DNA of 64,000 nt from Candidatus Oxydemutatoraceae bacterium (GCA_965219575.1 OZ244779.1:64001-128000), one strand, 5' to 3'; shown: positions 10,908 through 42,195, counted from the stretch's first letter. Translations and numbers: made by a program. The notes: generated from the sequence alone by a model not told the origin.

Positions 10908-10964
10908 TTATTGTAGCGAACCTTCCAGAAAAACTTTGTTTCTAACGCAAATAGCCGTGCCGGG
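10908..10964 (-). pseudogene. 3' relic of a KVFLEG-tail gene (PGTAICVRNKVFLEGSLQ*)
   Basis: 50/57 nt identical to 12410-12466; no start codon before an upstream in-frame stop. Confidence 0.75.
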
Positions 10965-11085
10965 GCGACTTCGAGTAGCTCGAGGTCGCCCCGGCGACGG
11001 ACACCGGTGGCTTCGGGCACCTGCGTGGTCAACAAATGTTAATATGTGTTATATTTCATATATATCTACATAGGAAAAAATAGAG

Positions 11086-11304
11086 ATGTCAGAAATAGCA
11101 CTTTACGACACATTAAGAAAAATAAACGGAGTATCCGATGCCGAAGCAAAGGAAGCTGTTGCCGATATTGCTAGTTCAAAGGACGTAGCAACTAAAATGG
11201 ATATATCAGAACTAAAGGCGGTGATAGCAAAGCTAGAAACGCGTATGACTTGGAAGCTAGTAGGTATTGGTATAGCGATTATCGGAGTGATTAAATATCT
11301 CTAA
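11086..11304 (+). CDS. Small DUF1640/CCDC90-like protein (subfamily B), 72 aa
   Basis: GVSDAEA...DVATKMDI, C-terminal hydrophobic helix; paralogue of 6595. Confidence 0.75.
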   Translation: MSEIALYDTLRKINGVSDAEAKEAVADIASSKDVATKMDISELKAVIAKLETRMTWKLVGIGIAIIGVIKYL

Positions 11305-11441
11305 AATAGTCTCAAAACTTTGGCACCGTACACCTTTTTGGGGGGTTTTTCAAGGAGATATAACTAGAGATCCGTGCAGGGTTAGAGAAATTACTTGTTG
11401 GTTTGACAAATTCTCTCACCATTATTTCTTTTGGCGTGATA

Positions 11442-12191
11442 TTAAAGACCCAGCCCCGCTAACAAATCACTTTGAGCAGAACCTGAAACACCTTTTGTAC
11501 TAGCAGCTGCACTCTCTCTAGTGGTTTCTAAACCCCAAGAGTACCAACCATCTCTTTTCACTCTAGCAAAAAGTTCTATTCTCTTTTGAACCGGAAACAT
11601 CTTTTCTATATTCTCTGCAACTTCAATAGGTTTCTCGCTATGCTGTTTTCTAGGACAGTTGATCAATTGTTTAATGTTCCTAGCACCTCTGGGATGAGGA
11701 ATACGACCCCGCTTAAACAATAAACAGAGTTCACAATAAGACATAGTATATTGACCCGGATTGTGTGCCATCTTATCCCACACAAAGGCAACCGTTTTGT
11801 ATTCAAACCCCCATGCTGCTCCGAGTTCAATAGCCTGTTGCAAATGTGGGTTGGTTGTCCACATAAACAATAAACTGTCGTTCTCTGCTATTGATTTTAT
11901 ATCCAGCTTCTTAAGATCGGATGTTTTGATGGTCGGATACTTAAAGTTGGCTGCACTAACAAAAACATCTTTGTTCCAACCCTTGTTGTTTTCAATGGTA
12001 GCGGTTTTATCGAATTGTAATTTTCCGTTGTAATGCCATGGCGGGTCGGCATACAGAATTGAGAATTTCATATCGGGCAGTGGTGGGTAAAATCGCTTAA
12101 GCATATTTACCTTTGTTTTTCTTTTTGCTTTCGCATTGTATATCTCATAACCTGATTTCGCCTCGTTGATTTGTAGATTGTTCATCATCAT
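11442..12191 (-). CDS. MT-A70-family N6-adenine methyltransferase (orphan)
   Basis: ILYADPPW catalytic motif, LFMWTT, WGFEYKT, HSEKP, IELFAR; AT-rich. Confidence 0.9.
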   Translation of the reverse strand: MMMNNLQINEAKSGYEIYNAKAKRKTKVNMLKRFYPPLPDMKFSILYADPPWHYNGKLQFDKTATIENNKGWNKDVFVSAANFKYPTIKTSDLKKLDIKSIAENDSLLFMWTTNPHLQQAIELGAAWGFEYKTVAFVWDKMAHNPGQYTMSYCELCLLFKRGRIPHPRGARNIKQLINCPRKQHSEKPIEVAENIEKMFPVQKRIELFARVKRDGWYSWGLETTRESAAASTKGVSGSAQSDLLAGLGL

Positions 12192-12269
12192 CTCCTATGC
12201 AGTAAGTTATTTATGAATGTCTCGCACACTTCTACCATGTGCCAACCAGCGTATGTATTATATCCACAA

Positions 12270-12412
12270 AATGAATGGGTGAATGTGTTCATCATGCAGA
12301 TATGGCGCGACCACATAAGAGGATAAACCTTAGTTTATCCGACCTACATTCTTATGTTGAGGTTCTGCACAAAGTCACGCCACTTGCCCAACTGGAGCAA
12401 GTGGCGGTTCTA
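12270..12412. repeat. Mosaic repeat with a compensatory-variant hairpin GCCACTTGC/GCAAGTGGC
   Basis: Aligns to the GTTGAGGTTCTGCACAAAGTCACGCC... module. Confidence 0.75.
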
Positions 12413-12682
12413 TTGGAGCGGACCCTCCAGAAAAACCTTGCTTCTAACGCAAATAGCTGTGCCGGGGATAGGTAAAATATCGTTAGGAAAATCCAATTGG
12501 GCATTAGCGGTACTAGAACTGGTGATTCCAATAGTGATTTTTATGGTTTTACACATATCAAAAGAATCACTCAGTGTTAATCGCATAGGCACATTGACGT
12601 TCTCCCAAAATTTAGTACTAATGCTTAAAGTTAGTTTTTCCGATAAACTAGAGAAGTTAAAAACATTACAGGAGAACTTAAC

Positions 12683-12949
12683 ATGAAGAGAAAACGTTTT
12701 AGTGAAGAACAAATCATTAAGGCATTAAAGTCAAATCAAGCCGGCATGAAAGTAATCGATATCTGTCGTGATCTAGGCATCGCCGAACAGACATTTTATC
12801 GCTGGCGCAGCAAGTATAATGGCATGGAAGTGGCAGAAGCTAAACGCCTGCGAGAGCTTGAAGCCGATAATAGCAAGCTCAAGAAGCTATTGGCTGAATC
12901 GGTGATGCAGTGTGAAACACTTAAGGAGGTATTATCAAAAAAGTGGTAA
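12683..12949 (+). CDS. IS3 transposase OrfA
   Basis: MKRKRFSEEQII HTH, TFYRWRSKY. Confidence 0.93.
   Translation: MKRKRFSEEQIIKALKSNQAGMKVIDICRDLGIAEQTFYRWRSKYNGMEVAEAKRLRELEADNSKLKKLLAESVMQCETLKEVLSKKW
12923..12943 (+). promoter_or_regulatory. -1 programmed frameshift signal
   Basis: AAGGAGG (12923-12929) upstream of AAAAAAG (12937-12943) at the OrfA/OrfB overlap; OrfB is in the -1 frame. Confidence 0.8.
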
Positions 12950-13767
12950 AGCCGGCGCAACGCAAGCAGATTGTCAAAGATCTAGTGAGCGCGGGTCGGC
13001 ATAGTGAACGCACTGCGTGTGCCCTTGCCAGTATTAGTCGCACTGCATATCGCTATCAGGGCAACCAAGCCGATAAAGATCGTCAACTGGAAGTTGCGTT
13101 ATTGGAGAAGGCAAAGCAATATCCACATTATGGCTATAAGATGTTGCATGCGCTTTTGAAGAGCGAAGGCCGGGTCGTCAATGTGAAGCGTACCTATAGG
13201 CTTTATAAGAAGCTCAGGCTCGAATTGAGAACCAAGAAGCGCAAGAAGCTGTGTCATCCGCGTGGCGTGCCGAAAACACCGGCAACGGTGAATGAGTGCT
13301 GGTCAATGGACTTTGTGCATGACCAGTTTAGCGACGGCAGATGCTTTCGGGTATTGAACATAGTAGATAACTTCAGCCGTGAATGTGTCGGACAGATTGT
13401 TGATGTTTCGATCACCGGTCAACGCGTAGCAAACTATCTATCCGAATTGATAGAATGGCTCGGTGTGAAGCCGGCACGCATCGTCTGCGACAATGGCACC
13501 GAGTTTAGATGCAAGGCGATGTTTCACTGGAGCCGAGATCAGCAGGTGGAATTGGACTTTATCCAACCCGGCAAACCGACCCAGAATGCCTTTGTAGAAA
13601 GTTTCAACGGCAAGTTCCGAGACGGTTGTCTGAACCAGTTCTGGTTTCGTTCAATAAAAGAGGCGAGAGAGATTATAGAAGCCTGGCGAATAGATTATAA
13701 TGAAGTGCGTCCGCACAGCGCATTGGGTTATCAACCCCCAAGTGTATTTGCGGAGGCTATAGCATGA
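12943..13767 (+). CDS. IS3 transposase OrfB (DDE/rve)
   Basis: WSMDF, CDNGTEF, ESFNGKFRD, RPHSALG. Confidence 0.93.
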   Translation: MVKPAQRKQIVKDLVSAGRHSERTACALASISRTAYRYQGNQADKDRQLEVALLEKAKQYPHYGYKMLHALLKSEGRVVNVKRTYRLYKKLRLELRTKKRKKLCHPRGVPKTPATVNECWSMDFVHDQFSDGRCFRVLNIVDNFSRECVGQIVDVSITGQRVANYLSELIEWLGVKPARIVCDNGTEFRCKAMFHWSRDQQVELDFIQPGKPTQNAFVESFNGKFRDGCLNQFWFRSIKEAREIIEAWRIDYNEVRPHSALGYQPPSVFAEAIA

Positions 13768-14227
13768 AAACTAACTTTGTATATGGTAATAAAAATGGGG
13801 TAACGTCAACATCTTGTTGATCATCGGAATCCATGCAGAGTCGGTAAGAAATACCGGCGGAACTAGAAAAGTCAAGGAAACGACCTAAAGAACAGTTAGT
13901 AAGAGGAGGAGTATAATTGCTCTCATCCGCCAAACTCCCTTCGCTGGGACTAACATCCAAAGACTGAATTTGAGTCACTAACACCTCGCTAACCGTGAGT
14001 TGACGGCTTAACTTGACATTGAAATCTATTATGCGCCCCATAGAGGTTCGAGTGGTTTCTACATCTCCTAGGCCAACAAAAACTTGTGCGGAAGCCACAT
14101 TTGCCGAGCAAACGAGCAGTAAGCACAAACCGGCATGGATTAGATAACGTCGTAAGTATTTCATCACCCCAAATTTTTTCATAGCCCACCATTATATCAG
14201 TACGCCAGAACCCAATTTAATAATGAT

Positions 14228-14398
14228 ATGGATGAATGTATAAACATAGTACGGATACGACACAACCACCCCGTCAGGCTGAATAGAACCGCCGATTGAA
14301 CCAGTCGGTCAATCGGCGTGACTTTGTGCAGAACCTTAACATGACTGCTAAACGCATACATTGCAAAATCCATAGGCCACCCCTCCACAGGAGGGGAA
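14228..14398. repeat. Mosaic intergenic repeat (second empty TIR-insertion site)
   Basis: GGATACGACACAACCACCCCGTCAGGCT plus CCGATTGA and CCCCTCC hairpins. Confidence 0.85.
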
Positions 14399-14400
14399 TA

Positions 14401-14431
14401 AAATAAAAAAGCCCTGCGGAGCAGGGCTTTC
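14401..14431 (-). terminator. Rho-independent terminator of groEL
   Basis: AAAGCCCTGC-GGA-GCAGGGCTTT stem followed by a T-run on the minus strand. Confidence 0.8.
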
Positions 14432-14456
14432 TTGTTTAAGCAGATGTTGCTACGGA

Positions 14457-16109
<1,653 letters not shown>

Positions 16110-16120
16110 CTATTGTCGGT

Positions 16121-16411
16121 TTAAGACTCAAGAATAGCCAACACGTCATCTTCACGCATAACGACTATATCTTCTCCGTCCAGCTTGATTTCGGTACCTG
16201 AATACTTACCGAACAAAATCTTATCGCCCTTTTTGAGGGTTAAAGCACGAACCGTGCCGTCATCCAGCAGTTTGCCCTCTCCGACTGCTACGACTTCTCC
16301 TCTCATAGGCTTTTCAGTAGCACTGTCGGGAATGACAATGCCACCAGGGCTTAATTTCTCTTCTTCCGTGCGTTTTACTACGACACGGTCGTGTAAAGGT
16401 CGAATATTCAT
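16121..16411 (-). CDS. groES: Co-chaperonin GroES
   Basis: [19 protein letters not shown]. Confidence 0.99.
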
Positions 16412-16571: not shown

Positions 16572-16896
16572 TGAGACAGCCCTGTGCATGCGGTATAACA
16601 CAACTATCGCAAGCGATAAGAGTAGCAACAGCGAGTAGCCCACAAAACCACCACTGCTACTACGCTTCTTTCATCTCACGCTCCGACAAAAGGTTCTCGT
16701 CGCTGACCGTGAACTCATAATATCCTCTCCCCCCTTCGACATGGGCAACCAATGCCAAATAATCACCCGCTCTAGGGGCAATCCATTCAATGCTCGATAC
16801 ATCGCTGCCACGATAACGCTCACTCCGTTCTATTAAACTCGTCGCGTCGGGATCATATAAGCTCAACTCCGTCACCATTCGGGTATTATCATAGCC
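16572..16896 (-). pseudogene. 3' relic of a second copy of the CLCA-like/vWA gene
   Basis: Near-identical to about 33417-33755, with a small deletion; cut by the IS end at 16897. Confidence 0.85.
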
Positions 16897-17344
16897 TGAC
16901 GTTACCCCATTTTTAGGGCCACCTGCAATGTCAGTTTTCATGCTATTGCCTCCGCAAATACACTCGGAGGTTGATACCTCAATGCGCGGTGCGCACGGAC
17001 TTCATCATAATCTATGCGCCAGTCTTCTATAATCTCTCTGGCCTCTTTTATTGAACGAAACCAGAACTGGCTCAGGCAACCAGCTCGGAACTTGCCGTTG
17101 AAACTTTCTACAAAGGCATTCCGGGTCGGTTTGCCGGGTTGGATAAAGTCCAATTCCACCTGCTGGTCTCGGTTCCAGTGGAACATGGCATTGCATCTAA
17201 ACTCGGTGCCATTGTCGCAGACGATGCGTACCGGCTTTGCGTCGAGCCGTTCTATCAATTAAGTTCTCCTGTAATGTTTTTAACTTCTCTAGTTTATCGG
17301 AAAAACCAACTTAAACATTGGTACTAAATTCGGGGAGAACGTCA
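16897..17344 (-). mobile_element. Internally deleted IS3 copy (448 bp), both IRs retained
   Basis: Same TGACGTT ends as 12595-13808; left-end leader fused at about 17258 to the distal OrfB; no target duplication. Confidence 0.9.
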
Positions 17345-17351: not shown

Positions 17352-20300
17352 TTATTGAAGAGGGCCTTCTAAAAATACTTTGGTGCGAATCCTAAGCAGC
17401 GGACGAGTTGTATAAACACGCTCCGGCGAATAAACCGCTTCGCGATAACCTTGACCATCGGTATAAGTCCCTTTGACGCGAAATAGACTGCCATCCTCTA
17501 CTACAGAGAACCTGTTGCCACCTTCCACCAAAATACTAGAACCCGATATCATGTACCGTATCCCGCCGGCATCGTCGATATTCATCCAATGACTCTCCGA
17601 GGGACAACGCCCTTCATTCCCTTCACAGACTTGCCATTGATACACCACAGTCCCACTAGTGCCTCCGTCGGGATCGTCGGATAATATCATCGCCGTTAAT
17701 GTCGTCCCTCCGCTTACTATTTCTACGGAGATTCGTATCGTTGCAGAACCATTATTTTTCTTCCTCACTTCTACCAATACCGCACTTGTCGTAGCGAGCT
17801 CCCCGTCGCTCACTTCTACCTCCAAATTGAGCGTCGTTCGGGTGGATGCAGCATCTTTTATATAGTCGGGTGGAATGTCGAGTGTTGCCGGGTTGCTATT
17901 GTCATTGCTAAATACCCCGGAATCCTCGCTCCAGCGATACATTAAGTCGTCATAGTTTGCATCACTTGCACTCACGCTAATATTTTGCGTATCGCCTTCA
18001 CCGATCACCTCCGTTGCAGTAGTGCTTGTGATAACCGGTCGTTCATTTGCAACGATATAGGAGTTGGATTGAATAACCACAGACTGTCCTAGATTATCCA
18101 TGATTATTAGGTCTAGTCTATAACTGGTGCCGGTCGCGCGTCCCAATTTATTGTCCGCTATCATATAGGTTCGGCTGGTAGCATCCGTTATAGCAACACC
18201 CTCTCTATACCACCGATAATTCACCCCAACGATATTGTCCGCATCCTCTAGCGTTGAAGTCGCACGCAGTAACCATTTATTGCTATTATCCGGTTCTATG
18301 CGCACACGACCGGTCGGCTTCTTACCAACACGCACCAGCAAAGATACATTGGCGGTTGATCCTCTGCTATCCGTTGCGGTGAATACGACAGTGGCTGTTC
18401 CTGCTATAACACCGGTTAGTGTGAAGGTTATACTCGTATCGGTCGTTATCGTATCGGTTTGTGTCGGTATCACCGATACGATAGTCCGGCTTGATGACCT
18501 CGCCGCCAAAACGACACCATCGCCGACATCAAAATTAGTGTCCGATATCAAAACCATTACTTGCGTGGTGTTGCCCAACCTTATCGCCGGCTGCGGTGCG
18601 GCAATAAGCTCAAGCATCGGGGCTTCGTTCCCTTCGACTGCCACCTCAAACCGTTTTGAGACCTCGGAGTTCGACACACCTCTGCGGTCATTCACCGTCG
18701 CAGTGACTGTCGTAATACCGGCACCGATACCGGTAATCTTAATCGTGCGCGTCGTACCCGCTCCCGCTACACTTACGCTTGCAACTTCGGGTTCATCCGA
18801 TTGAATACCGAATATTAGATCACTTGATATATCGTCGGCATCGGCATCGCTTAGCTCCACACCAAACACAGCCTCTGCCCCTTCTAACAGACTGATACGT
18901 TGCGAAGGTATACCGCTAATCGTCGGCGAATTATTTACACGCTCTCTATGAGTATATCCCGGTGTATCAATCGTTTCGCGATAACCTTGACCATCGGTAT
19001 AAGTCGCTTCTGCACGAAATACACTGATATCTTTTACTATCTGAAATCTACTGCCGCCTTCCAACAAAATACTAGAACCCGATATGATGTACTGTGCTTC
19101 GTTAGCTCCATCAATATCCAGCCAATCATTCGCCGAGGGACAAGAGAATCCGTTCCCTTCACATACCTGCCATTGATACGCCACAGCCTCACCGGTGCCT
19201 CCGTCAGGATCATCGGAGGATACGGTTGCCAGGATTGCCGTATCTCCGTTTATTTCGTCTAGGGAAACTCCTAATCTTGCAAAATCATTATTTTTCTTGT
19301 TCACCACGACCAGTACCGTTCTTGTCGTAAAGAGCTCCCCGTCGTTTACTTCCACCTCCAGATTGAGTATCGTTTGGGTGGATACGGCATCTCTTATATA
19401 GTAGGGTGGAATGCTTAATCTCGCCGGGTTGCTATTCTCATTGCTTAATACCCCGGAGTCCCCAATCCAGCGATACACTAAGTCGTCATAGTTCGGATCA
19501 CTCGCTGTCACGCTAATATCCTGCCTGTCACCCTCACTGATCTCTGCTACAGGAACGGTAATAACAGGTTGTTCATTTGCAACCTCATAGGGGTTCGATC
19601 GAATAACTACCGATTGCCCTAGACTATCCATAACCGTCATTTCTAAACTATAGCTTGTGCCTACGGCGCGTCCATTTCTACTGTCCGGTATCGTATAGGT
19701 CGGGTTGGTAGCATTCGCTATCGCAACACCCTCTCTATACCATTGATAATTTACCTCAACAATGCCGTTCGCATCCTCTACCGTTGAAGCCACACGCAGT
19801 AACCATTGATTACTGCTATCCGGTTCTATGCGCACACCACCGGTCGGCTTCGCATCGACAGACACCAGCAAAGAGACACTATCGGTTGACACGCTCCTAT
19901 CCGTTGCAGTGAATACAATAGTCGCTGTTCCTGCTTTAATACCGCTTAGTGTGAAGGGTACGCTCATATCGGTCGCTATAGGGTCGGTTCTCGTCGGTAT
20001 CACCGATACGATAGATCGGCTTGACGACATCGCCTCCAAAACAACACCATCGCCCACATCAAAATCGGCATCCGACACCAAAACCATTACCTGTGTGGTA
20101 TTGCCCAGCCCTATCGTTCGATTGGGTGCGGCAATAACCTCAAGCATCGGGGCTTCGTTCCCTTCAACCTCCACCTCAAACCGTTCCGAGACTTCGGAGT
20201 TCGACACACCTCTACCATCGTTGACCGTCGCAGTGATGGTCGCAATACCGACACCGATAGCGGTAATCTTAATCGTACGGGTCGTACCCGCTCCTTCTAC

Positions 20301-32300: not shown

Positions 32301-33374
32301 CACCTCACCATGAGCAGAACTATTCTCAATGTGTATAATATCGGCATTACCAACTAATCCACCTACCCAGTATTCCCCTTCCACCGTCCCGGTGGCATGA
32401 CTGTTAACAATTCTCCACGCTCTATCTGAAAAACTATCTAATGCTGTCCCAACCCTACCTATTAGTCCACCTACGCTAATAGCTCCGGTAACATTCCCGA
32501 CTGCACGACTATTAATGATTTGACCGGTTCTGAAAAAAGTTTCGGCAGTCGTTCCGACTAACCCACCTACCTCCGCAACTCCCGATACGGTGTTGAATGC
32601 TTGACTATTTTTAATTGTGGAATAAGTGCTACCTACTAAACCACCCACTTTATCGCCTGTTCCTATCACAACGCCGGTTGCAGAACTGTTCTCAAGAACG
32701 GGAGATGCAAGAGATGTAAAACTATTATAACCAACCAGTGCACCTATCCGAGAAACACCTCTTATACTGCCGCTAACATAGCTATTTCTAATTTTTCCGG
32801 GCTCGTTACGAGCAACCAAAGCCCCTACTCTTGATTTCCCCTGAATATTCACATCCAGTAGCCGAATATCCTTAATTTCCCCCCCGACACCATTAACAGC
32901 AAATAGACCGACATTATCGCTATTAGGCCTATTGATCGTCAAATTTCGGATAGCATAACCATTACCTTCAAACGTACTATCCTGGACTATATTCCCACTC
33001 CCGAAAGGTGCTACAACACTCCCGATCGGTAGCCAACCCGAACCTACCACCCAATCCGTGCGAATTACTCCACTGCGATAACTGTTAGCATCTAGAAAAT
33101 CTAAACCTCTCATCAGCTCATAACCCCTACAACGATTACCGGGACAACCTGCGGTGATCTTCTCTGCCGACTCGTTAGCTTTATAACCGGTGCCGTCCAG
33201 TTGATAACGGATGACATTCAGCCCCTCCAAATCGCAAATATCTATTAACCCATCGTTATCCTTGTCTATATCGGTCAAAGAACAAGGAGATAAAGGCAAT
33301 GTCTGTGCCGCGGCAAACTGCCATGGCATAGCACAAAGAAAAAATGCCAATAGAATAAATATTTTGTGTGCCAA
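17352..33374 (-). CDS. Giant secreted adhesin-like protein, 5340 aa (GLUG-type beta-helix regions, cadherin/Ig-like repeats, KVFLEGPLQ tail)
   Basis: Signal peptide, DIDKDNDGLID Ca-type loops, many VGGLVG/VGGFIG repeats, about 7 repeated modules ending YTDGQGY. Confidence 0.88.
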   Translation of the reverse strand: MAHKIFILLAFFLCAMPWQFAAAQTLPLSPCSLTDIDKDNDGLIDICDLEGLNVIRYQLDGTGYKANESAEKITAGCPGNRCRGYELMRGLDFLDANSYRSGVIRTDWVVGSGWLPIGSVVAPFGSGNIVQDSTFEGNGYAIRNLTINRPNSDNVGLFAVNGVGGEIKDIRLLDVNIQGKSRVGALVARNEPGKIRNSYVSGSIRGVSRIGALVGYNSFTSLASPVLENSSATGVVIGTGDKVGGLVGSTYSTIKNSQAFNTVSGVAEVGGLVGTTAETFFRTGQIINSRAVGNVTGAISVGGLIGRVGTALDSFSDRAWRIVNSHATGTVEGEYWVGGLVGNADIIHIENSSAHGEVVATGIAIGVGGLVGLINEKGGRIDKSHATGSVTGIRRVGGFLGGAIGAIDFDDSYATGSVTGIRRVGGFIGHALGGSITNSYAIGMVQVRQRSENIGGFIGQSGGTRIMNSYAIGNVQGGQGGSRVGGFIGSTDDVNIINGYATGRVQGGEESRGVGGFIGISLVGSIRNSHAIGNVEGDIVTGGFIGQSEGTRIINSYAASHVGGRGTVGGFIGFSSAVITDSYATGSVAAVQTVGGFIGVAEGGSITNSYAASHVRGGETVGGFVGFSSAVITNSHATGNVTAGNDGGGFVGFHDTDGSITNSYATGNVVAESGAGGFVGFHLSVITNSYATGNVVAERDAGGFNAAGSGVITHSYWDRQTSGRASSVGGRGKTTSELQLPTTSTGIYSSWDDDVWDFGTSEQYPALKYSDGTLQPNQRLGLLRLGLPSSLILSPFFKPEVLSYRVIDETDIRQIRLTPAAANFDTDIIIESSGGFRERMPSGTTSSEISLNTVGVTTATVEVLTSHDVLIRYTLAFNDRTFNEGERIILKRTTARDVDESTLRYKWTQVSGMLRLLPVEGISQAVLDVPIPELSLSKTEDDREITIRLEINDGTKTETKDLRLTIAKADNGTAVQSDPIITRSDRTLTAPEVDLSTDPDGSGTINSYLWQRRADINADWIDIEGVTGNMYRVPEDTAYAEYRVQYAYTDGQGYVQVLISEVFIFITDVDIDNNGLIEINDLEGLDAIRYQLDGSGYRQNETADKITTGCPDAGCKGYELKRSLDFERSTSYRSGIIGTAWTTGSGWLPIGTSKAPFDATFNAKGHTIANLRIDRSSAARGVGLFGITASNAEIANVGLLDVNISGNQGVGGLVGYKQGGSIIGSYVTGQVRGSGTYDVGGLVGWHRGGTISDSYSSSTVVGLRRNVGGLVGDNDGGTISDSYAKGNVNGEEEVGGLVGRNNNTGIIMRSRAEVKVDGGGRVGGLAGENSGIITNSYTGERIIGRADVGGLAGWNSGAITNSYALGFVKGDNGVGGFVGNNLQGTITNSYARGNVDGANRYIGGLVGWSARGAIINSYAQGNVRGKDGVGGLVGVNLGLANNSGVGRVTKSYATGRVRGDANSGGLIGENRDGHVEKSYWNKTNNPTVVSAGGISRTSVEMQIPTQPGNSVTEIYYDWSTADWDFSATDQYPTLEYAVGLDQSQPACGTAEDPDCGTPLTGQLQIVRTAPIEPISDIRLLTETVKDLNVVLSVGIGDDPTQFKTGVKSSNDNIATASIAEGGGLVRTLRVFTGSDIGRSEITVSVDDGEGSADSVSSTTFVVTTETNDAPKITITSLSELISVDDRIVISVEVMDDNFDAGDRVLLTSSVVSEVLVEPRQIAGISSNKTERITLKGVRGGTAMVRFTVIDSKGAADSETVSVRVDAKPTGSVRIEPDSSNKWLLGSTSTIEDANGIAEVDYRWYRNGVVIANATNRNYMIADNREGRATGTSYRLELTVIDSIGQSVVIQSNSLRVANERPVIISTTATKMIGEGDTQNISVSASDPNYDNLMYRWSEDSGILSNEHSNPAILGIPPDYIKDAASTRTTVNLEVRVSDGELATTGTVSVVVNKQNNGSATLGNLIEIGSRETTLAVMVLSDDPDNGVSGAVGYQWQVCEGNEGRCPSESNWMNINDAGGTQYIISDSSILLEDGSTLPLVVGDSLFRVEGTYTDGQGYSEVVYSQGYSYSGRVNASPTISGLPLQRIRLFEGTETTLNVTINDADADDISGNLVFGVQSDIPEVARVDVAGAGTTRTIKITAIGAGIATITATVNDDRGVSNSKVSERFEVEVEGNEAPMLEVIAAPEQTTGLGNTTQVVVLVSDTNFDVGDRVVLEAMSSSRSRVSVLPTQTDTITTDTMITFMLTAEQSGEATITFTATDSKNVSTDTEVMVRVNTPPQVLSDDVPSRVVATVGEAFELKTSEFFADADDDVLRYSAVGLPQSIVITTTGTLVGVPLIGDASKNGTGLMVTVSVDDGIGGSTRTTFTLLIDAKPSGSLRVNPDDQWLLTAMVEDANGIVEVNYRWYRNGVAIASATSPTYTIPDNRAGRAAGTNYSLELTVIDSIEQSVVIQSNSYMIANERPIITSITVAEMINEGDTQDISVIARDPNYDDLMYRWSEDSGVLSNDNSNPTTLGIPPDYIQDAVSSRTTVNLEVRVSDGELATTGTVSVVVNKRNNGSARLGTSIEIVSAGTTLTTMVLSDDPDNGMSGAVAYQWQVCAGNEAGCPSANDWLDIDDATGTQYMILGSSISVEGGDLFLLVEGRSLFRVEGAYTDGQGYREEVYSQGYSYSKRVNASPTINGLPVQRIRLLEGTKTEFEVELNDPDADDISSDLVFGIQSDIPEVARVDVEGAGTTRTIKITAIGVGITTITATVNDGRGMSNSEVSERFEVEVEGNEAPMLEVIVFPQQILGLGNTTQVMVLISDINFDVGDRVVLEAMSSSRSIVSVIPTRTDPIATDMSVPFTLSGIKAGTATIVFTATDRSVSTDSVSLLVSVDAKPTGGVRVDPDDQWLLTAIVEDANGIVEVNYQWYREGVAIAGATSPTYTIADNREGRAAGTSYSLEMTVIDSLGQSVVIRSNSYTVANERPIITVPVAKMISEGDTQDISVTASDPNYDDLMYLWIGDSGVLSNENSNPARLSIPPYYIRDAVSTQTILNLEVGVSDGELFTTRTVLVVVNKKNNGSARLGLSLDEINGDTAIMTTVSSDDPDGGTGEAVAYQWQVCEGNGFFCPSENDWLDIEGATEAQYIISGSSILLEGGSRFQIVKDSSVFRAEATYTDGQGYSETIDAPRYTHRERVNNSPKISGIPLQRIRLFKGTETKFVVVLSDADTDDISSDLIFGIQSDEPEVVSVSVEGAGTTRTIKITAIGVGIATVTATVNDGRGVSNSEVSKQFEVEVEGNEAPMLEIIIAPQLAIKPGNTTQVVVLVSDTNFDIGDRVVLEAMSSSRSIVSVVPTQTDTITTDTSITFTLTGVKAGTAAITFIVMDGAGLRGSVALSVRVNARPNDSVSITPDDTNKWLLRSTSTIADASDIVGVNYRWYRNSIAITDATSRTYMITDNRAGRATGTSYRLDLIIMDNLGQSVVIESNLYVIANERPVITSITAAEMIAEGDTQNISVSASDANYDDLMYRWSEDSGILSNEHSNPATLNVPPDYIKDVASTRTTLNLEVEVSDGELATTSAVLVEVRKKNNGSATIRISVEIGSRGTTSTAMILSDDPDGGTSGTMVYQWQVCEGNEGRCPSQSHWMNIDDAGGIRYMISGSSILVEDGSTFPLVEGGSLFRVEGTYTDGQGYREEVYSQGYSYSTRVNASPTISGLPAQRIRLFEGTEAEFEVELNDLDADDISSNLVFGVRSDTPEVARVDVAGAGTTRTIKITGVGAGIATITATVNDDRGVSNSKVSERFEVEVEGNEAPMLEVIAVPMQTIGLGNTTQVVVLLSDTNFDVGDRVVLEAVSSSRSRVSVLPTQTDTITTDTIITLMLTAKQSGEATITFTATDSKNVSTDTEVMVRVNTPPQVLFDNVPSRVVATVGEAFELKTSEFFADADDDVLRYSAVGLPQSIVITTTGTLVGVPLIGDASKNETGLMVTVFVDDGIGGSTRTTFTLLIDAKPSGSLRIEPDNSDKWLLRAASTIEDANGIVEVDYRWYRNGVAIAGATSQTYTIPDTRAGRTAGTSYSLEMMVVDSIGQSVIIQSNSHTIANERPVIIVSGAEMINEGDTQDISVSASDPNYDDLMYRWSEDSGVLSNDNSNPATLGIPPDYIKDAASARTTLNLEVRVSDGALFTTRTLSVVVNKRNNGSARLGTAIEIVSAGTTLTTMVLSDDPDNGINGAVAYQWQVCAGNEAGCPSANDWLDIDDATGTQYMILGSSISVEGGSAFPLVEGGSLFRAAGTYTDGQGYREAVYSQGYSYSTRVNVSPTISGLPARRIRLLEGTETEFEVVLNDADADDISSDLVFGIQSGTPEVARVDVEGAGTTRTIKITAIGVGIATITATVNDGRGVSNSEVSERFEVEVEGNEAPMLEVIAAPNRTIGLGNTTQVMVLVSDADFDVGDGVVLEAMSSSRSIVSVIPTRTDPIATDMSVPFTLSGIKAGTATIVFTATDRSVSTDSVSLLVSVDAKPTGGVRIEPDSSNQWLLRVASTVEDANGIVEVNYQWYREGVAIANATNPTYTIPDSRNGRAVGTSYSLEMTVMDSLGQSVVIRSNPYEVANEQPVITVPVAEISEGDRQDISVTASDPNYDDLVYRWIGDSGVLSNENSNPARLSIPPYYIRDAVSTQTILNLEVEVNDGELFTTRTVLVVVNKKNNDFARLGVSLDEINGDTAILATVSSDDPDGGTGEAVAYQWQVCEGNGFSCPSANDWLDIDGANEAQYIISGSSILLEGGSRFQIVKDISVFRAEATYTDGQGYRETIDTPGYTHRERVNNSPTISGIPSQRISLLEGAEAVFGVELSDADADDISSDLIFGIQSDEPEVASVSVAGAGTTRTIKITGIGAGITTVTATVNDRRGVSNSEVSKRFEVAVEGNEAPMLELIAAPQPAIRLGNTTQVMVLISDTNFDVGDGVVLAARSSSRTIVSVIPTQTDTITTDTSITFTLTGVIAGTATVVFTATDSRGSTANVSLLVRVGKKPTGRVRIEPDNSNKWLLRATSTLEDADNIVGVNYRWYREGVAITDATSRTYMIADNKLGRATGTSYRLDLIIMDNLGQSVVIQSNSYIVANERPVITSTTATEVIGEGDTQNISVSASDANYDDLMYRWSEDSGVFSNDNSNPATLDIPPDYIKDAASTRTTLNLEVEVSDGELATTSAVLVEVRKKNNGSATIRISVEIVSGGTTLTAMILSDDPDGGTSGTVVYQWQVCEGNEGRCPSESHWMNIDDAGGIRYMISGSSILVEGGNRFSVVEDGSLFRVKGTYTDGQGYREAVYSPERVYTTRPLLRIRTKVFLEGPLQ

Positions 33375-36183: not shown

Positions 36184-36426
36184 TTATTGGAGAGGGCCTT
36201 CTAAAAATACTTTGGTGCGAATTCCTAAGCAGCGGACGACCGGTACCGTCCGGTTGATAGCGAATGGCATTCAATCGCTCCAAGTCGCAAATATCGATCA
36301 GTTATCGTTATCCTTGTCTATATCGGTCAACGAACAAAGGGATAACGGCGATGTCTGCGTCGTGGCAAACTGCCACGGCATAGCAAACAACACAAATATC
36401 TATAGGATAAGTATTTTGTATGTCAA
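36184..36426 (-). pseudogene. Internally deleted relic of the giant gene (first ~190 nt fused to last ~55 nt)
   Basis: Matches 33187-33374 and 17352-17406; contains a stop and frameshifts. Confidence 0.85.
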
Positions 36427-36444
36427 TTTTTGACAACCCTCGCT

Positions 36445-36908: not shown

Positions 36909-37223
36909 ATGGACAACTTAATTTCTTTGGTGCAAAGCAGTATAGATAAATACGAACAAGCAGAGCGTATTGCCGACACACTGATAGAGGAGAAACTTTG
37001 TGCGTGTATTCATATTGTAGGACCTATGACTTCTATTTATCGCTGGGACGGGCGCGTCGTCAACGACCAAGAATATCTGCTCAGTGCTAAAACGGCGCGG
37101 GCTAAAGTCTCGGCATGCAAAACTCGTTTGATGCAACTGCATACTTATGATTTACCGGAAATCATCGTTCTGCACATAGATGACGCAAGCGAGGATTATG
37201 CAAAGTGGGTTTGCAATCAATGA
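36909..37223 (+). CDS. cutA: Divalent-cation tolerance protein CutA
   Basis: SIYRWDG, HTYDLPEI. Confidence 0.92.
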   Translation: MDNLISLVQSSIDKYEQAERIADTLIEEKLCACIHIVGPMTSIYRWDGRVVNDQEYLLSAKTARAKVSACKTRLMQLHTYDLPEIIVLHIDDASEDYAKWVCNQ

Positions 37224-39025: not shown

Positions 39026-39030
39026 AAACG

Positions 39031-39600
39031 ATGACCATCCGCAGCCGTCTCATACTGATCACTGCACTACTATCCGCTGCAATCGGTGCTTTTACCGCCT
39101 TTTATATAAACTACTACCTTTTGCCCGAAGCTACGACGGCAACAGACCATCCGTTGATCGGCACCGCGCGTCCCGATTTCAGTCTTTACGATCTAGATGA
39201 AAACTATACCTCGGTTTCAACTTGGGACGGAAAAATTGTGCTACTAAATTTTTGGGCAGCGTGGTGTCCACCGTGTCGCCGAGAAATTCCGGTATTTAAC
39301 GAAGTCCGTGAATTTTTCCACGACGACGGCTTTGAGGTCGTCGGCATTGCGATTGACGAAAAAGAAAAAGTCTTGGAGTTTCTGGAATCTATGCCTCAAG
39401 TGCGGTATCCCCAACTGATCGGCTACGACGACGCTTTGACGATTGCATCGGTGCTCGGCAACCAATCGGGCGGACTCCCGTACAGCGTGATACTCGATCG
39501 GCAAGGCACGATCCGCTATATCAAAGCCGGTGAACTCGACAAGCAAACACTCATCTCGCAGATTGAACCGTTGCTCGCCTTGATTGCCGGCAAAGACTAG
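39031..39600 (+). CDS. TlpA-family thioredoxin-like disulfide reductase
   Basis: N-terminal TM, NFWAAWCPPCRRE. Confidence 0.9.
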   Translation: MTIRSRLILITALLSAAIGAFTAFYINYYLLPEATTATDHPLIGTARPDFSLYDLDENYTSVSTWDGKIVLLNFWAAWCPPCRREIPVFNEVREFFHDDGFEVVGIAIDEKEKVLEFLESMPQVRYPQLIGYDDALTIASVLGNQSGGLPYSVILDRQGTIRYIKAGELDKQTLISQIEPLLALIAGKD

Positions 39601-39612
39601 CATTGAGTTAAT

Positions 39613-39897
39613 ACATTCCCCTCCTTCGGAGGGGTGGCCCATGCATGTTGCAATGCATGCGTTTAGCAGTCATGTTGAGGTTCTGAACAAAGTCACGCCG
39701 ATTGAGCCGTTAGGTCAATCGGCAACTCTGATGTCCGCCCGTAACAACGCGTTTGCCGGCACGATTTATACATTTATTAATCCAGTTTATGGAAACCAAA
39801 ACCACATGGCGCAAGCGATTACAGCTGTGCAGAACGACACTTTAGGGCGGACATACAAGTCCGCCCCTACGGTTCGTGGATACTTTTTCAACAAGCC
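39613..39897. repeat. Mosaic intergenic repeat with REP
   Basis: CCCCTCC hairpin, CCGATTGA hairpin, REP near 39845-39870. Confidence 0.85.
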
Positions 39898-39912
39898 CGA
39901 ATGATTTGCGTC

Positions 39913-42195
39913 CTAGCGGAGGGCACCCTCTAGAAATACTTTTACATTCACCCGAATGGTCGTCAAAGAGATACCCTCCGTCTCAACCTTCTCGGGATAT
40001 CCTTGTCCGTCGGTATAGCTTAATCCGGCACGAAATATCCTACTGCCGTCTTTCGAAGTAAAGGTTTCGCCACCCTCCAACTCAATTTCAGGTCCCGATA
40101 TGATGTACTGCGGCGCAGTCGCCCCGGCAATATTCTTCCAATCATCGTCCGTAGCACAACGCCCCTCATCCTCCGTACACACTTGCCACTGATACATCGC
40201 ATTTTCATCGGGACCACCGTCGGGGTCGGTGGATATTATCGTCGCCGTTAGGGTCACCGCACTGCTTCCTATCTCTACCGAGTCTTCTATGGTCGCCCGA
40301 CCGTTATTTATCTTTCTCACCGACAACATCACCATCCTTGCCGTAGAGAAAGTGCTGTCGCTTACTTCCACCCTCAGAACGAGCGTCGTGCTCGTCAATG
40401 CAGCGGCTACAAAGTCCGGAGGAATACGCAATAGTGCCGTGTCTCTATCGGTATTATCCAATGCCTCGGTGTCTCCGCTCCAGCGATATGTCAAGTAATC
40501 GTTGTTCATATTGATTACCTGCACGCTAATGCTTTGCGTCGAACCTTCGTCTATCGTCGTCATCGGTACGGTAATACCGGCAATAATCGGCGGCGTGTCC
40601 TCTTCGTCTACTCTGACATTCAGCAAGACCGGTTCGGATCGTGCATTATCACGACCGCTATCGTCCGTTGCCACCAATCTCAGTTGTGTCACCGATGTCG
40701 CAACCGCAGCCGAGATTCTAATTCTTAGGTCAAACATGTTTACGGTATCATCGCTCGGAGGCACCTGTACGCTTGTAGTTATTAAATCCTCTCCGTCTAT
40801 ATCTAAGGCACTCCATTCCACGGTGAGTCTATTGCCTATATCTTCATCGTCGTCGGACACCACCATGCGAATTCTGCTTTCTCCCCTTTTGAACAGCGTG
40901 ATTTCGGTGTCGGAGCGCGGAGATATAATTTGCGGTTGTGCGTTCCTTGCGTAGCGTAATATGGTTTCGCATACAGGCTGCTGAGAGGTGCCACAGGCCG
41001 GGGTGTCGCTACCACTACCCGGCGCATATCTGACCACCGGGTATTGCTCGGATGTACCGAAATCCCAGTTTTCCTCGCGCCATAAATAATAAGGTTGGGT
41101 GTTGGAGGTTGCGATATCCGTGTTCGGACTCATCGGGCTTCGCAATTCCTCTGTGGTGAAACCACGGAAATTGCTAACAATACTGGAATCACCCCTAGTT
41201 TGATACGGTAATAGATTTGCCCCCTTCTCCGTATCCCAATAACTATTTTCTATGGTTCCCGATGGATTATGTCTTATTATCGGGTGGTTAACATTCGTAG
41301 ATATGATGTAAAGGGTGTTGGATGTATCTCCTCCGTTTGCTCTTTTTATTATTCCTTGATAATCACGCATCCCTAGAGTTAATTGAAAGGAGCTATCGGA
41401 CAGTTTGCCGTTGCTATCTATTTCGTTTCTGATCAATGCGGCACCACCCCTACCTCGAATTTGTAAGTTGACATCAACATTAGATATTTCACCGTTGTTA
41501 ACATAAATCAAAAGACTCTTTCGTATCGGATTAAATCTCTCGGTTATTTCCCCTCCAATATAGCAGTTTATAATCTCTCCTCTGTTATCGTAAACGAAAT
41601 AAGACTCTGCAAAATTGAGGCGTCTCCCTACCCGCATATTCAAAAAATTCAGGTTGCGGATTTGCCCATTTAAGTCGGCTATAAATCCTAATCGGTTATC
41701 GGTATTATCCGATCTATTTTGAAATAAGTTTGATATGCTGTGACCGTTGCCTTCCAGAATGCTTAAGAAGTCTCCCATATTAGACCAGCCTCCGCCTGTC
41801 GTCCAATCCTCGTTGACCATGCCATTTCTGTAGCTATCGCCGTCCTGAAAATCCAAATCGCGCACGAGTTCGTAACCATTACAGCCATCGGCACGACAAC
41901 CTGTGGTGTCCGGCTGAGTTGCAGGGCTATTGTTAGTGCTATAACCGGTGCCGGTGATTTGATAACGCATGTTAAATAGATCTTCCAAATAACACATCTC
42001 TATCAAGCCGTCGTTGTCGTTGTCTATGTCGGCATCAGCACAGACCGCTTCGGCATTGGGTGAGAATTCACTCCACGAATCACCTATGAACATCGGCTCT
42101 GTTTGAGCCAATGCCGACTGTACAAAAATTGATCCCAAACACAGCAGAATTAACCATTTGCCGAGTCCCACATGAGTTGTGTCTTTATGTGCCAT
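39913..42195 (-). CDS. Secreted short paralogue of the giant protein with KVFLEGALR tail (about 760 aa)
   Basis: MAHK start and signal peptide, DIDNDNDGLIE, WDFGTSEQYP, YQWQVC, YTDGQGY shared with the 5340-aa protein. Confidence 0.82.
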   Translation of the reverse strand: MAHKDTTHVGLGKWLILLCLGSIFVQSALAQTEPMFIGDSWSEFSPNAEAVCADADIDNDNDGLIEMCYLEDLFNMRYQITGTGYSTNNSPATQPDTTGCRADGCNGYELVRDLDFQDGDSYRNGMVNEDWTTGGGWSNMGDFLSILEGNGHSISNLFQNRSDNTDNRLGFIADLNGQIRNLNFLNMRVGRRLNFAESYFVYDNRGEIINCYIGGEITERFNPIRKSLLIYVNNGEISNVDVNLQIRGRGGAALIRNEIDSNGKLSDSSFQLTLGMRDYQGIIKRANGGDTSNTLYIISTNVNHPIIRHNPSGTIENSYWDTEKGANLLPYQTRGDSSIVSNFRGFTTEELRSPMSPNTDIATSNTQPYYLWREENWDFGTSEQYPVVRYAPGSGSDTPACGTSQQPVCETILRYARNAQPQIISPRSDTEITLFKRGESRIRMVVSDDDEDIGNRLTVEWSALDIDGEDLITTSVQVPPSDDTVNMFDLRIRISAAVATSVTQLRLVATDDSGRDNARSEPVLLNVRVDEEDTPPIIAGITVPMTTIDEGSTQSISVQVINMNNDYLTYRWSGDTEALDNTDRDTALLRIPPDFVAAALTSTTLVLRVEVSDSTFSTARMVMLSVRKINNGRATIEDSVEIGSSAVTLTATIISTDPDGGPDENAMYQWQVCTEDEGRCATDDDWKNIAGATAPQYIISGPEIELEGGETFTSKDGSRIFRAGLSYTDGQGYPEKVETEGISLTTIRVNVKVFLEGALR

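Follow-up and report, generated by a model that had tools for sequence, protein, structure and literature searches.

In chaperone-usher pili, a donor strand with alternating hydrophobic residues completes the fold of another subunit. In the type V pili of Bacteroidota, C-terminal strands are exchanged between lipoprotein pilins that are proteolytically activated and polymerize head to tail. Other secreted proteins carry C-terminal signals that dedicated machines read: GlyGly-CTERM is recognized by rhombosortase, and the C-terminal domain of the type IX system (T9SS) by PorV/PorU. Here we analyzed a 64-kb stretch (the window; 64,000 nucleotides) from a Candidatus Oxydemutatoraceae bacterium, in which several secreted proteins share a C-terminal tail of the form KVFLEGxL(Q/R). 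We consider it likely that this tail is a donor-strand, or split-domain, docking tag: the detached first strand of a domain, which would couple its carriers to a common adaptor.

It is useful to contrast the proposed arrangement with these systems. As in chaperone-usher pili, a short strand from a second polypeptide would fill a one-strand gap, and both partners are Sec-exported. Indeed, a hallmark of donor-strand systems is present, namely an acceptor fold without a strand that its intact relatives have in cis. Unlike in those pili, the acceptor is an unnamed DWVLVELR domain with a dockerin-like module rather than a pilin Ig fold, the donors are about 50–150 different non-pilin proteins rather than one fibre's subunits, and the split arose when a domain still intact in relatives underwent fission. 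As in type V pili, the C-terminal strand of one secreted protein is predicted to enter the groove of another, but here the cargoes are many and the adaptors one or a few, the proteins lack a lipobox, and the arrangement does not entail a polymer. Finally, as in the cohesin–dockerin pairs of cellulosomes, many secreted proteins would be held on a common scaffold by a small tag, and an acceptor has a Dockerin_1 match. However, the cargo tag here is a 14-residue strand, a search of the window's genome (G000) for cohesin PF00963 gave 0 matches at E ≤ 0.1, and what we propose is fold completion, not domain–domain contact.

Other identities of the tail were considered and rejected. Like the tripartite signals (GlyGly-CTERM/rhombosortase, MYXO-CTERM, PEP-CTERM, LPXTG), it sits at the extreme C-terminus of Sec-exported surface proteins, and such signals form the alternative end of giant proteins in the same family (genome G011). 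The tail has neither a hydrophobic helix nor a basic cluster, and all 43 copies in G000 stop three residues after FLEG, in line with the sequence-only reading, which had set it apart from LPXTG, PEP-CTERM and GlyGly-CTERM for want of a transmembrane helix. The NCBIfam library, which was positive on the G011 giants (MYXO-CTERM matched, GlyGly-CTERM weakly), gave no sorting-signal match on the window carriers. A BAM β-signal was rejected because the terminal residue is Q or R in G000 (42 and 1 copies) and R or E in other genomes, never aromatic, again as first noted. Giant adhesins with a signal peptide and a C-terminal tag recall T9SS, but the T9SS domain is a folded unit of 70–100 residues from Bacteroidota, whereas this tail, in a gammaproteobacterial family, has 14 residues, is coil on the carrier model and has no NCBIfam match. 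A membrane-anchor signal was likewise rejected.

Tail-bearing genes in the window and the genome

The sequence-only reading had located five tails, on three genes and on relics at 10908 and 36184; all five are present where it placed them, on the minus strand. The gene at 17352..33374 (minus strand) encodes a 5340-aa protein with a signal peptide, GLUG repeats, and cadherin-like and Ig-like modules, and its tail, LRIRTKVFLEGPLQ, occupies 17355-17396 ahead of the stop at 17352-17354. The gene at 39913..42390 (minus strand) gives 825 aa from its first ATG and about 760 aa from the Met before the signal peptide GLGKWLILLCLGSIFVQSALAQ; the latter, with a signal peptide ending in SALAQ, is likely the true start. 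Its tail, IRVNVKVFLEGALR (39916-39957, stop at 39913), is the sole R-ending tail among the 43 in G000, and a Pfam search of this carrier matched no family. The last ~225 residues of these two proteins are 48% identical, so that the carriers, described at first as unrelated, are so only with respect to the small third protein.

That protein (~185 aa) is also not encoded by a full-length gene of 184 aa, as had been supposed. An IS3-family element on the plus strand (12683..13767; orfA 12683-12949, orfB 12943-13767, the latter with rve/rve_3/HTH_21 domains) splits it into an N-terminal fragment with a signal peptide (13757..14182, minus strand; residues 7-127 match paralogue residues 1-120) and a C-terminal fragment (12410..12712, minus strand), which matches paralogue residues 119-179 and ends in ICVRSKVFLEGPLQ (tail 12413-12454, stop 12410). 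Signal peptides are visible in each of the three genes. The relic at 36184..36270 (minus strand) is a 28-codon frame ending in GIRTKVFLEGPLQ and a stop; about 62 nt of it match the 5340-aa gene's 3′ end almost perfectly, and a 1-nt indel shifts the upstream frame. The relic at 10908..11048 (minus strand), a 46-codon frame ending in ICVRNKVFLEGSLQ and a stop, resembles the small carrier's 3′ end (stop 12410) and has neither a start codon nor an upstream gene body.

Genome-wide, the pattern [KR][VIL]F[LIVM]EG.[LIVMF].-stop occurs in 42–43 copies in G000. The reversed DNA pattern, our control, gave 0 matches in all 19 genomes of the family, and the tail count therefore lies far above chance. A profile search returned 51 tail matches in G000 and at least 150 in a relative (G006). 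Carriers reach 16,068 aa, 37 of the 43 have a signal peptide by a crude rule, and tail-bearing signal-peptide proteins make up 18% of the coding capacity of G000. Without their tails, the G000 carriers form three BLAST components (of 36, 6 and 1), and the tail is found after differing last domains. Confinement to close paralogues and a mostly internal position had been named as grounds for doubting the motif; instead, it occurs on at least three unrelated protein groups in G000 and in six genera, and in 74 of 76 database matches the motif reaches the very C-terminus.

An unnamed domain probably made in two parts

The tail most likely corresponds to the first β-strand of a domain, the rest of which is produced as a secreted protein of its own. 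The landmarks of this domain are, in order, FLEG(P/A)(Y/L), (L/I)P..(Q/D)PY, DWVLVELR, HRNH and YDF, with a dockerin-like calcium-loop module next, and no Pfam or NCBIfam model matched it. In distant acceptor homologues, ..[KR].FLEGP[YF].. stands 42–51 residues upstream of DWVLVELR in 10 of 11 cases, the 11th being an N-terminally cut record; among close homologues with the DWVLVELR motif, the upstream strand is present in 0 of 31. The strand is also in cis at both G005 loci examined (VKARAWLQGAY, IRARVFLQGAY) and in a 650-aa protein of G012 (..NVLLGGAVR-GSVPSTPY-MTTDL..). Tails of G012 end in ..KVYLGGAVR-stop, and GGAVR is thus a lineage-specific variant common to its tails and its cis strand. 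The cis forms follow ..[KR].F[LM][EQG]G[PA][YFL] x(3-6) M.T.L..(L/I)P..(Q/D)P(Y/F). The tail is homologous to this cis strand, matching it both in residues and in spacing to the next conserved block: the tail ends at G-P-L-Q, and the acceptor starts at M.T.L. The fission point is exact. In alignment A5, acceptor signal peptides fill the columns of the cis forms' FLEG strand, and mature acceptors begin at the conserved M.T.L..(I/L)P..DPYC, just where the strand ends; the acceptors of G002, G006, G017 and G009 share this point. As a lead only, the cis form seems commonest in Bacteroidota.

Tail-bearing genomes encode 1–5 stand-alone secreted acceptors of ~290 aa. Those of G000 lie at G000:2246056-2246925 and 2216875-2217765. 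The latter gives the sole Dockerin_1 match in G000 (33 bits, cut-off 22.9), no such match being reported for the former, and positions 206-274 of the A5 profile weakly match solved dockerins (E 0.009–0.9). The acceptor gene at 2216875-2217765 ends 6 nt before the start of a 4598-aa tail gene (2203073-2216869), and in G001 an acceptor (23047-23715) lies directly ahead of a 2741-codon frame that ends in a tail at 31981. Most G000 carriers are not adjacent to an acceptor gene, and the stoichiometry is lopsided, with 2 acceptors to about 50 carriers in G000 and 1 acceptor match to at least 150 tails in G006.

Tails and acceptors match in their distribution. We surveyed 53 genomes of the order, 19 in the family (f1) and 34 in its sister families f2–f4. 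Tails occur in 17 of the 19 f1 genomes, in all six genera, as do acceptor homologues in 17 of 19; for each, the count elsewhere is 0 of 34. The two co-occur in 16 genomes and are jointly missing from 35, a match that rests on few independent events (one family, one co-loss in G011 and one fused species, G005). The exceptions are G016, with tails and no acceptor in an 85%-complete assembly of 230 contigs, and G005, with no tails and 24 domain matches in open frames of 687–17496 aa, all but one longer than 1200 aa. G005 represents the fused state of strand and domain. The full genome of G011 contains neither tails nor the DWVLVELR motif. Some acceptor matches are weak, as in G018 (E 4.8e-4) and G014 (E 4e-6).

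A different view, also raised at the outset, is that the tail is a C-terminal sorting signal for a dedicated secretion, processing or anchoring machine, such as an outer-membrane transporter or a peptidase, with the acceptor either irrelevant or a receptor subunit. The extreme C-terminal position, the Sec signal peptides of the carriers and the last residue, uniform within a genome (Q, R or E), all agree with it. So do the giants of tail-less G011, which end instead in a choice-of-anchor U domain followed by a GlyGly/MYXO-CTERM-like helix and RRRR. Across the 19 family genomes, tail and choice-of-anchor U counts show an inverse correlation (Spearman −0.49, nominal p 0.03, without correction for kinship), and the two look like alternative ends of the same protein class. 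We nonetheless regard a sorting signal as improbable, since no candidate machine emerged: G000 has a single Omp85 and lacks ShlB/TpsB, the distribution of the outer-membrane candidates tested does not fit, and the two compact secretin clusters are shared with G011 and G005, which have no tails. Among genes recurring next to the tails, none is a credible candidate for export or sorting, and repeat-element pseudo-ORFs make up the one sizeable cluster; no NCBIfam sorting-signal model matched either. Nor would a sorting signal account for the tail's identity with a domain's opening strand, given that the rest of this domain is encoded apart with the same distribution.

The conservation of the tail bears on a further possibility, namely that tails are functionless stumps left by stop codons that truncated an ancestral C-terminal FLEG-DWVLVELR-dockerin module, the acceptors being unrelated leftovers or having another role. 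G005 and G012 contain the fused state, which makes truncation plausible as the origin of the tails, and relics or decayed ends are frequent (in the window, 10908 and 36184; in G010, locus L096). That the tails are without function is, however, very unlikely. Fourteen residues are conserved, as hydrophobic-R-hydrophobic-R-x-[KR]-V-F-L-E-G-P-L-Q-stop. The 43 tails of G000 are all distinct over 45 nt of DNA, yet F, L, E and G are invariant, through 2, 5, 2 and 4 codons respectively, and the stop is always three residues past G. Selection on the tail acts at the protein level: the nine core codons show 3,564 synonymous and 771 non-synonymous pairwise differences, which bears out the early remark that codons vary synonymously. 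Moreover, the tail is kept in six genera and on unrelated proteins with different last domains, and the acceptors gained signal peptides exactly at the fission point, with frames open in every genus examined.

Predicted docking of the tail

On its own carrier, the tail is modelled as an unstructured appendage: the cadherin-like domain has a pLDDT of 95–97, and tail residues 128-141 are coil at about 70. A complex of a tail carrier, the metagenome homologue P0037 (tail IRIRSKIFLEGPLQ) rather than a window protein, with an acceptor scored 0.87, against 0.00 for the best of 3 controls, although this score may only mirror an intact domain learned from sequences, since the halves of split genes tend to pass in this way. 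Among solved complexes, 58 of 80 attain the mark for this score, as do 2 of 110 mismatched pairs, counts that hold only roughly because our own alignments were fed to the model. At least 92% of contacts agree between runs, and the partner pLDDT is at least 71. The modelled interface on the carrier is exactly residues 127-141, with the tail docked in the domain core; on the acceptor, it includes the invariant L91, G95, H153, H156 and F176 and the nearly invariant V65, A85 and Y174. Docking in trans is thus a prediction of the model. Together with the cis-strand alignment and the matched distribution, it supports the early suggestion of a donor strand that completes a partner's fold.

It is hard to credit that the tail acts alone, as an amphipathic arginine-faced strand in or on the outer membrane or LPS or by stacking tail to tail with no protein partner: the hydrophobic/basic alternation (I-R-I-R-x-K-V-F-L-E in G000, L-R-L-R-L-R-V-F-L-E in G006), the free strand on the carrier model and its occasional placement elsewhere in a protein would suit such a role, but a generic amphipathic strand needs neither an invariant FLEG nor a fixed stop distance, the intact domain conserves the same residues in its cis strand, and tails and acceptors were lost together in G011.

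Under the docking reading that we prefer, the single chain of strand, domain and dockerin-like module seen in distant relatives and in G005, where it often lies within giant proteins, is split in the other f1 species in the loop after the strand. The donors would be dozens of Sec-exported proteins stopping three residues after FLEG, and the acceptors small secreted proteins whose mature start falls at the expected end of the strand. Once exported, the amphipathic tail would be inserted into the acceptor core as its missing strand (donor-strand complementation), linking any carrier by non-covalent contacts to a shared adaptor with a dockerin-like module. What the intact C-terminal module does in cis, presumably cell-surface attachment or assembly, would then fall to this adaptor; both the site of docking and the ligand of the reconstituted module are things we infer. 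In this way, a single adaptor could receive dozens of giant adhesin-like proteins. We lean slightly toward the broader proposal that domain fission has given rise to a proteome-wide plug-and-socket arrangement, in which a 14-residue strand tag on 50 to >150 secreted proteins per genome completes the fold of one or a few adaptors and loads giant adhesins on a dockerin-like handle.

If docking in trans is true, it would explain how proteins of up to 16,000 residues, with a signal peptide and no known anchor, are displayed in a reduced symbiont genome. It would also define a new, widely conserved, unnamed domain and name the tail's likely partner, and it would provide a short natural peptide tag with a cognate acceptor, one 260-residue protein. 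Such a system would be nature's equivalent of engineered split-protein tags and a novel mode of cell-surface organization in bacteria. A search of published full texts, supplements being outside its scope, with the motif strings and the genus name found no description of it. Fused and split states of the domain coexist within a single genus (G005 versus G010 and G013), an unusual natural series that makes it possible to test directly how fold complementation evolved.

At locus L096 of G010, a frameshifted remnant of choice-of-anchor U and GlyGly-CTERM lies downstream of the tail. Finally, in three proteins of G000 that lack the domain, the strand is found at an internal position or at the mature N-terminus, and the internal copies precede a Gly-rich linker; such placements fit a docking strand, though it did not predict them.

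Conservation and distribution of the tail

A six-frame scan recovered five copies of the 14-residue tail (of the kind IRIRAKVFLEGPLQ) in the window, each on the minus strand. They close the 5340-aa ORF (17352..33374), the ORF at 39913..42390 and a 100-codon frame (12410..12712), and two short relic frames end in tails at 36184 and 10908. When the DNA of these tails was aligned, near-identity, over about 62 nt, was confined to the 17352/36184 pair. Parts of the 12410/10908 pair also share DNA, and the other pairs differ mainly at third codon positions. Because DNA is shared by these two pairs alone and the variation is synonymous, a DNA-level repeat is rejected as the source of the tails.

The whole source genome (G000; 2.369 Mb, one contig, of which the window covers positions 64001-128000) contains 42–43 copies of the pattern [KR][VIL]F[LIVM]EG.[LIVMF].-stop, and the DNA is distinct in 43 of 43. 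F, L, E and G are invariant among these tails and are written with 2, 5, 2 and 4 codons, respectively. Pairwise comparison of the nine core codons gave 3,564 synonymous versus 771 non-synonymous differences. Thus, the tail is conserved at the protein level, as the sequence-only reading had proposed from synonymous codon variation, and it is under purifying selection. All but one of the 43 tails end in Q, and 37 of their carriers have a signal-peptide-like start by a crude rule. In a crude G000 gene set, tail proteins account for 131,943 of 727,329 residues (18%), the longest being 16,068 aa.

Beyond G000, the strict DNA pattern K-V-F-L-E-G-x-L-Q-stop was recovered from 4 of the 41 genomes of relatives, these 4 belonging to a single genus, and the relaxed pattern V-F-L-E-G-x-L-x-stop in 10 of the 19 genomes of the family, where a reversed control pattern had no matches. 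Of 401 sampled genomes of the class, G000 and G007 alone gave multiple relaxed matches, and four more genomes gave a single match; the control pattern gave 11 matches in 10 genomes of the same sample. A profile search of five genomes negative by pattern uncovered diverged tails, reading ..LRVRIRVFLEGAVIP-stop (G010), ..LRLRVRVFLQGALQ-stop (G009) and ..IRLRAKVYLGGAVR-stop (G012). A profile built from 19 tails of seven genomes was then run over 53 genomes of the order. It matched 17. All belong to the family, where they make up 17 of 19 genomes and span all six genera; the three sister families gave 0 of 34. Each tail-bearing genome has from 2 to at least 150 matches (the latter in G006; 51 in G000). 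The only family genomes without tails, G011 and G005, are each single-contig and 97–100% complete.

The last tail residue is uniform within a genome. It is mostly Q in G000, G001, G003 and G004, with occasional other endings among the matches listed; R in all matches listed for G002 (16; fragmented assembly) and G006 (26); and E in all matches listed for G017 (25) and G018 (14). Against 1.84 billion representative proteins, a 23-tail G000 profile gave 76 matches at E ≤ 0.001, of which 74 finish exactly at the protein's last residue; none of ten database matches looked up carries a name. A word search of a 5.8-billion protein set with the tail region returned the query alone and was uninformative. 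Tails can also lie in tandem: at locus L063 (G006:C3:497000-516999), a 156-nt unit is repeated four times (tails at G006:C3:513720-514214), each unit re-encoding ..MRIDLGSSLRLRLRVFLEGPLR and a stop, inside an array of 14 tail genes spaced 1.3–3 kb apart.

The carriers had been described from sequence as mutually unrelated. This does not hold for the 5340-aa and ~760-aa proteins, which have in common a repeated 225-residue module, 48% identical up to the tail. The tail-stripped G000 carriers form three separate BLAST components (36, 6 and 1 members); the tail is therefore common to unrelated groups, though its carriers are not all mutually unrelated. The small "184-aa" gene, taken at first to be intact, is split by an IS3-family element, and its halves match residues 1–120 and 119–179 of intact paralogues. 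GLUG, cadherin-like and Ig-like modules are present in the 5340-aa protein, and no Pfam family matched the ~760-aa and small window proteins. Near the other end of the carriers, x-A-Q follows a hydrophobic run within the first 70 residues in 33 of 43, versus 131 of 1858 other G000 ORFs, and the signal peptide likewise ends in A-Q in most of the acceptors described below. A Gln in this position, directly behind the cleavage site, is reminiscent of the Bacteroidota "Q-rule".

A domain split after its first strand

A likely partner of the tail emerged from a comparison with tail-less G011. When G000 ORFs were searched against the whole G011 genome (tblastn), 639 had no match, 251 of these being single-copy and 87 of the single-copy ORFs having a signal-peptide or membrane-like start. 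Reading the list of 87 revealed two secreted paralogues with a DWVL(V/I)ELR motif: acceptor 1 (G000:2246056-2246925, 289 aa, signal peptide) and acceptor 2 (G000:2216875-2217765, 296 aa, signal peptide and a Dockerin_1 match), whose gene is separated by 6 nt from the start of the 4598-aa tail gene downstream of it. G000 has two acceptors and about 50 carriers; no cohesin was found in this genome.

A search with acceptor 1 returned 45 proteins, 34 close and 11 distant. DWVLVELR is present in 31 of the 34 close homologues, and a FLEG-like upstream strand in 0 of these 31. Such a strand does precede DWVLVELR by 42–51 residues in 10 of the 11 distant homologues (for example ..LKIFLEGPF.., ..ARVFLEGPY.. 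and ..AKVFLQGAL..), the eleventh record being N-terminally cut. In the alignment of acceptors with these fused, or cis, forms, the strand columns are filled by the acceptor signal peptides, and mature acceptors start at the next block, M.T.L..(I/L)P..DPYC. The acceptors of G002, G006, G017 and G009 likewise have a signal peptide at the strand position and a mature start at this block. The tail is homologous to strand 1 of this domain, and the domain is split at the loop that follows strand 1.

The acceptor family is found in as many genomes as the tail. Of the 53 genomes in the order, 17 have it; all are family members (17 of 19, versus 0 of the 34 outside). It is absent from the 85%-complete G016. 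G011 has no acceptor and no DWVLVELR motif in any frame. Tail-less G005 has 24 domain matches, all inside open frames of 687–17496 aa and all but one in frames >1200 aa. At both G005 loci read, a cis strand (..VKARAWLQGAY.. and ..IRARVFLQGAY..) is followed by the domain and two dockerin-like loops, and one of these modules is the C-terminal end of a 1554-codon frame. Tails and strand-less acceptors therefore co-occur, are jointly lost in G011 and give way to the fused form in G005. A 650-aa G012 protein carries the strand in cis as ..NVLLGGAVR-GSVPSTPY-MTTDL..; since the G012 tails end in ..KVYLGGAVR-stop, a lineage-specific variant is common to tail and cis strand. The domain itself has no model in Pfam or NCBIfam and no sequence relative among solved structures, where only the dockerin-like part matches solved dockerins, weakly. 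Its nearest protein-atlas clusters are unnamed proteins of 200–250 aa, some with Dockerin_1, commonest in Bacteroidota, which we treat as a lead only.

A carrier fragment modeled from a 17-sequence alignment reached a mean pLDDT of 89 (95–97 in its cadherin-like domain), and tail residues 128–141 were coil at about 70; the tail thus lies outside the last carrier domain. A single-sequence fold of a 179-aa carrier failed, with a pLDDT of 30. When the mature acceptor and the last 42 residues of the modeled carrier were combined, with their alignments, the complex scored 0.87 versus 0.00 for the best of three controls. Among solved complexes, 58 of 80 attain that mark, and among mismatched pairs, 2 of 110; these counts hold only roughly because our own alignments were supplied. 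Runs agreed in at least 92% of contacts, with partner pLDDT of at least 71. On the carrier, the interface coincides exactly with residues 127–141; on the acceptor, it takes in the invariant alignment columns L91, G95, H153, H156 and F176, along with V65, A85 and Y174, which are nearly invariant. The model may know the intact form, so that split halves can pass; the score therefore indicates that tail and acceptor together resemble the whole domain, not that they bind in the cell.

From the homology and these models, we consider it likely that the tail completes the acceptor fold in trans. Carriers and acceptors would be exported by Sec, the tail would then fill the missing strand of the acceptor, and many different cargoes would in this way be joined to few adaptors bearing a dockerin-like module. 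The strand also occurs at the mature N-terminus or internally in three G000 proteins, where a Gly-rich linker but no domain comes after it; these proteins could dock likewise. It is useful to compare this scheme with two known systems, of neither of which it is a member. In its working, with the tail as donor strand, it resembles the donor-strand complementation by which pili are assembled; in attaching many cargoes to one shared handle, it resembles cohesin–dockerin tagging. Fold completion by a donor strand is already known; what would be new here is its unusual, proteome-wide use, next to the newly recognized domain. A literature search, which did not extend to supplements, found no description of the tail motif. 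On donor-strand complementation and dockerin jointly, the search found a general review, and for the genus it returned no paper about the tail system.

Sorting signals and export machines

The alternative that the tail is recognized by a sorting or secretion machine fared less well. From sequence, the tail had been set apart from known C-terminal signals by its lack of a TM helix and terminal aromatic. This was borne out on the 43 G000 tails, in which no hydrophobic helix, basic cluster or terminal aromatic follows the motif, and the suggested check of NCBIfam for an existing sorting-signal model gave no match on the window carriers. The tail belongs to none of three known classes, namely tripartite sorting signals, T9SS domains and BAM signals.

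No plausible export or sorting gene recurs beside the 43 tail genes of G000. The sole sizeable neighbor cluster consists of repeat-element pseudo-ORFs, whereas ATPases, methyltransferases and effector-like proteins form the small ones. The repeat element, with pseudo-translation HSPP.EGWPMH..SSHVEVLNKVTPI.., flanks several tail genes (window 10602-10874, 12275-12475, 14197-14568, 39584-39904 and about 42230-42390) and supplies 36 of the 199 neighbor ORFs.

Genome-wide candidates were followed by their presence in tail-less genomes. Of four secretins in G000, one belongs to a compact type IV pilus/T2SS-like cluster (G000:C1:1222786-1231058) that is conserved in tail-less G011 and is therefore not tail-specific. 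This cluster encodes a lipoprotein secretin, three unknowns, a GspE-like ATPase, a GspF-like protein and a 298-aa pilin-like protein, and is kept in G007, G011 and G014. It is flanked on one side by a 15,535-aa tail gene and on the other by a 5,772-aa gene (G000:C1:1232414-1249732) that ends in a degenerate tail, ..IRVFPEGLLL-stop. In G001, G003 and G004, a second compact secretin cluster is situated close to tail genes, yet it is also found in tail-less G011 and G005. The MetA-pathway-like outer-membrane barrel L072 (G000:C1:2232519-2233532) is missing in G011, but it follows the clade of genera g1, g3 and g4, is missing from tail-bearing g2, g5 and g6, and occurs in the tail-less sister families f3 and f4. 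In G014, L072 is broken by one in-frame TGA, its match falling in two pieces. The other outer-membrane candidates tested likewise have a distribution that does not fit the tail: L067, which is porin-like, occurs in 17 of the 19 genomes of the family, tail-less ones included, L071 is present in tail-less G005, and L068 was found in 0 of 5 genomes. An extra Omp85/TpsB transporter is dismissed, as the one Omp85 match in G000 is BamA-like (778-aa frame) and ShlB/TpsB gave no match there.

Alternative ends and adjoining loci

Tail-less G011 is placed in one family with G000, at 61.6% versus 47% G+C. Its whole contig contains giant ORFs of up to 17,453 codons, another having 10,081. These giants end in a choice-of-anchor U domain, then a glycine run, a hydrophobic helix and RRRR, the known tripartite kind. 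Among four G011 C-termini, NCBIfam choice_anch_U matched two (37 and 36 bits; cut-off 32) and MYXO-CTERM two (21–22.5 bits; cut-off 20). Across the 19 family genomes, tail counts and choice-of-anchor U matches are inversely related (Spearman −0.49, nominal p 0.03), a correlation that is descriptive only because it is uncorrected for kinship. The G011 ends and these inverse counts suggest that one and the same protein class has two alternative endings, a classical anchor signal or the tail. Between G007 and G011, a search for orthologous giants in which a swap of signals could be followed yielded no pairs.

Both kinds of end meet at locus L096 (G010:C1:234976-238020), at about 236000-236520 on the minus strand. 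Within about 200 nt after a tail, ..IRIRVFLEGAVIPSSAP-stop, a decayed choice-of-anchor U and a GlyGly-CTERM-like end lie in two other frames, which may record the replacement of one type of end by another. In the window, a 897-aa VWA-domain protein (33399-36092, minus strand) adjoins the 36184 relic and ends in SSSSSGGFVGYPLLLLLLLAIVVLYR.., GlyGly-CTERM-type in look, with no NCBIfam model match to this end. Just downstream of the 5340-aa gene, a 93-aa copy of the VWA C-terminus lies behind a truncated IS3 orfB (16660-16941 and 16938-17258, both minus strand). The junction of tail end and VWA gene seems to have been duplicated and then broken by the IS.

Other loci were noted in passing. The stretch from the 36184 relic to the 39913 carrier contains genes for DsbD, a TlpA-like redoxin, CutA and FxsA. 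A sulfur-oxidation-type cluster (49198-55037, plus strand) encodes a SoxA/TsdA cytochrome c domain, a SoxB-like 5'-nucleotidase C domain and a thioredoxin-like protein; five of its ORFs (49198-49584, 50423-51262, 51621-53366, 53363-53899 and 53892-55037) have no G011 counterpart. Finally, a family of 466–708-aa proteins with an N-terminal ..F(L/V)(S/G)R(F/I)V(T/S)W.. motif adjoins G000 tail genes (G000:C1:169511-170911, 1786923-1790795 and 2266399-2268525). The same family also adjoins a 585-aa secretin (2264621-2266378) with an FHA-like neighbor. By eye, this arrangement resembles a locus for type III secretion and its effectors.
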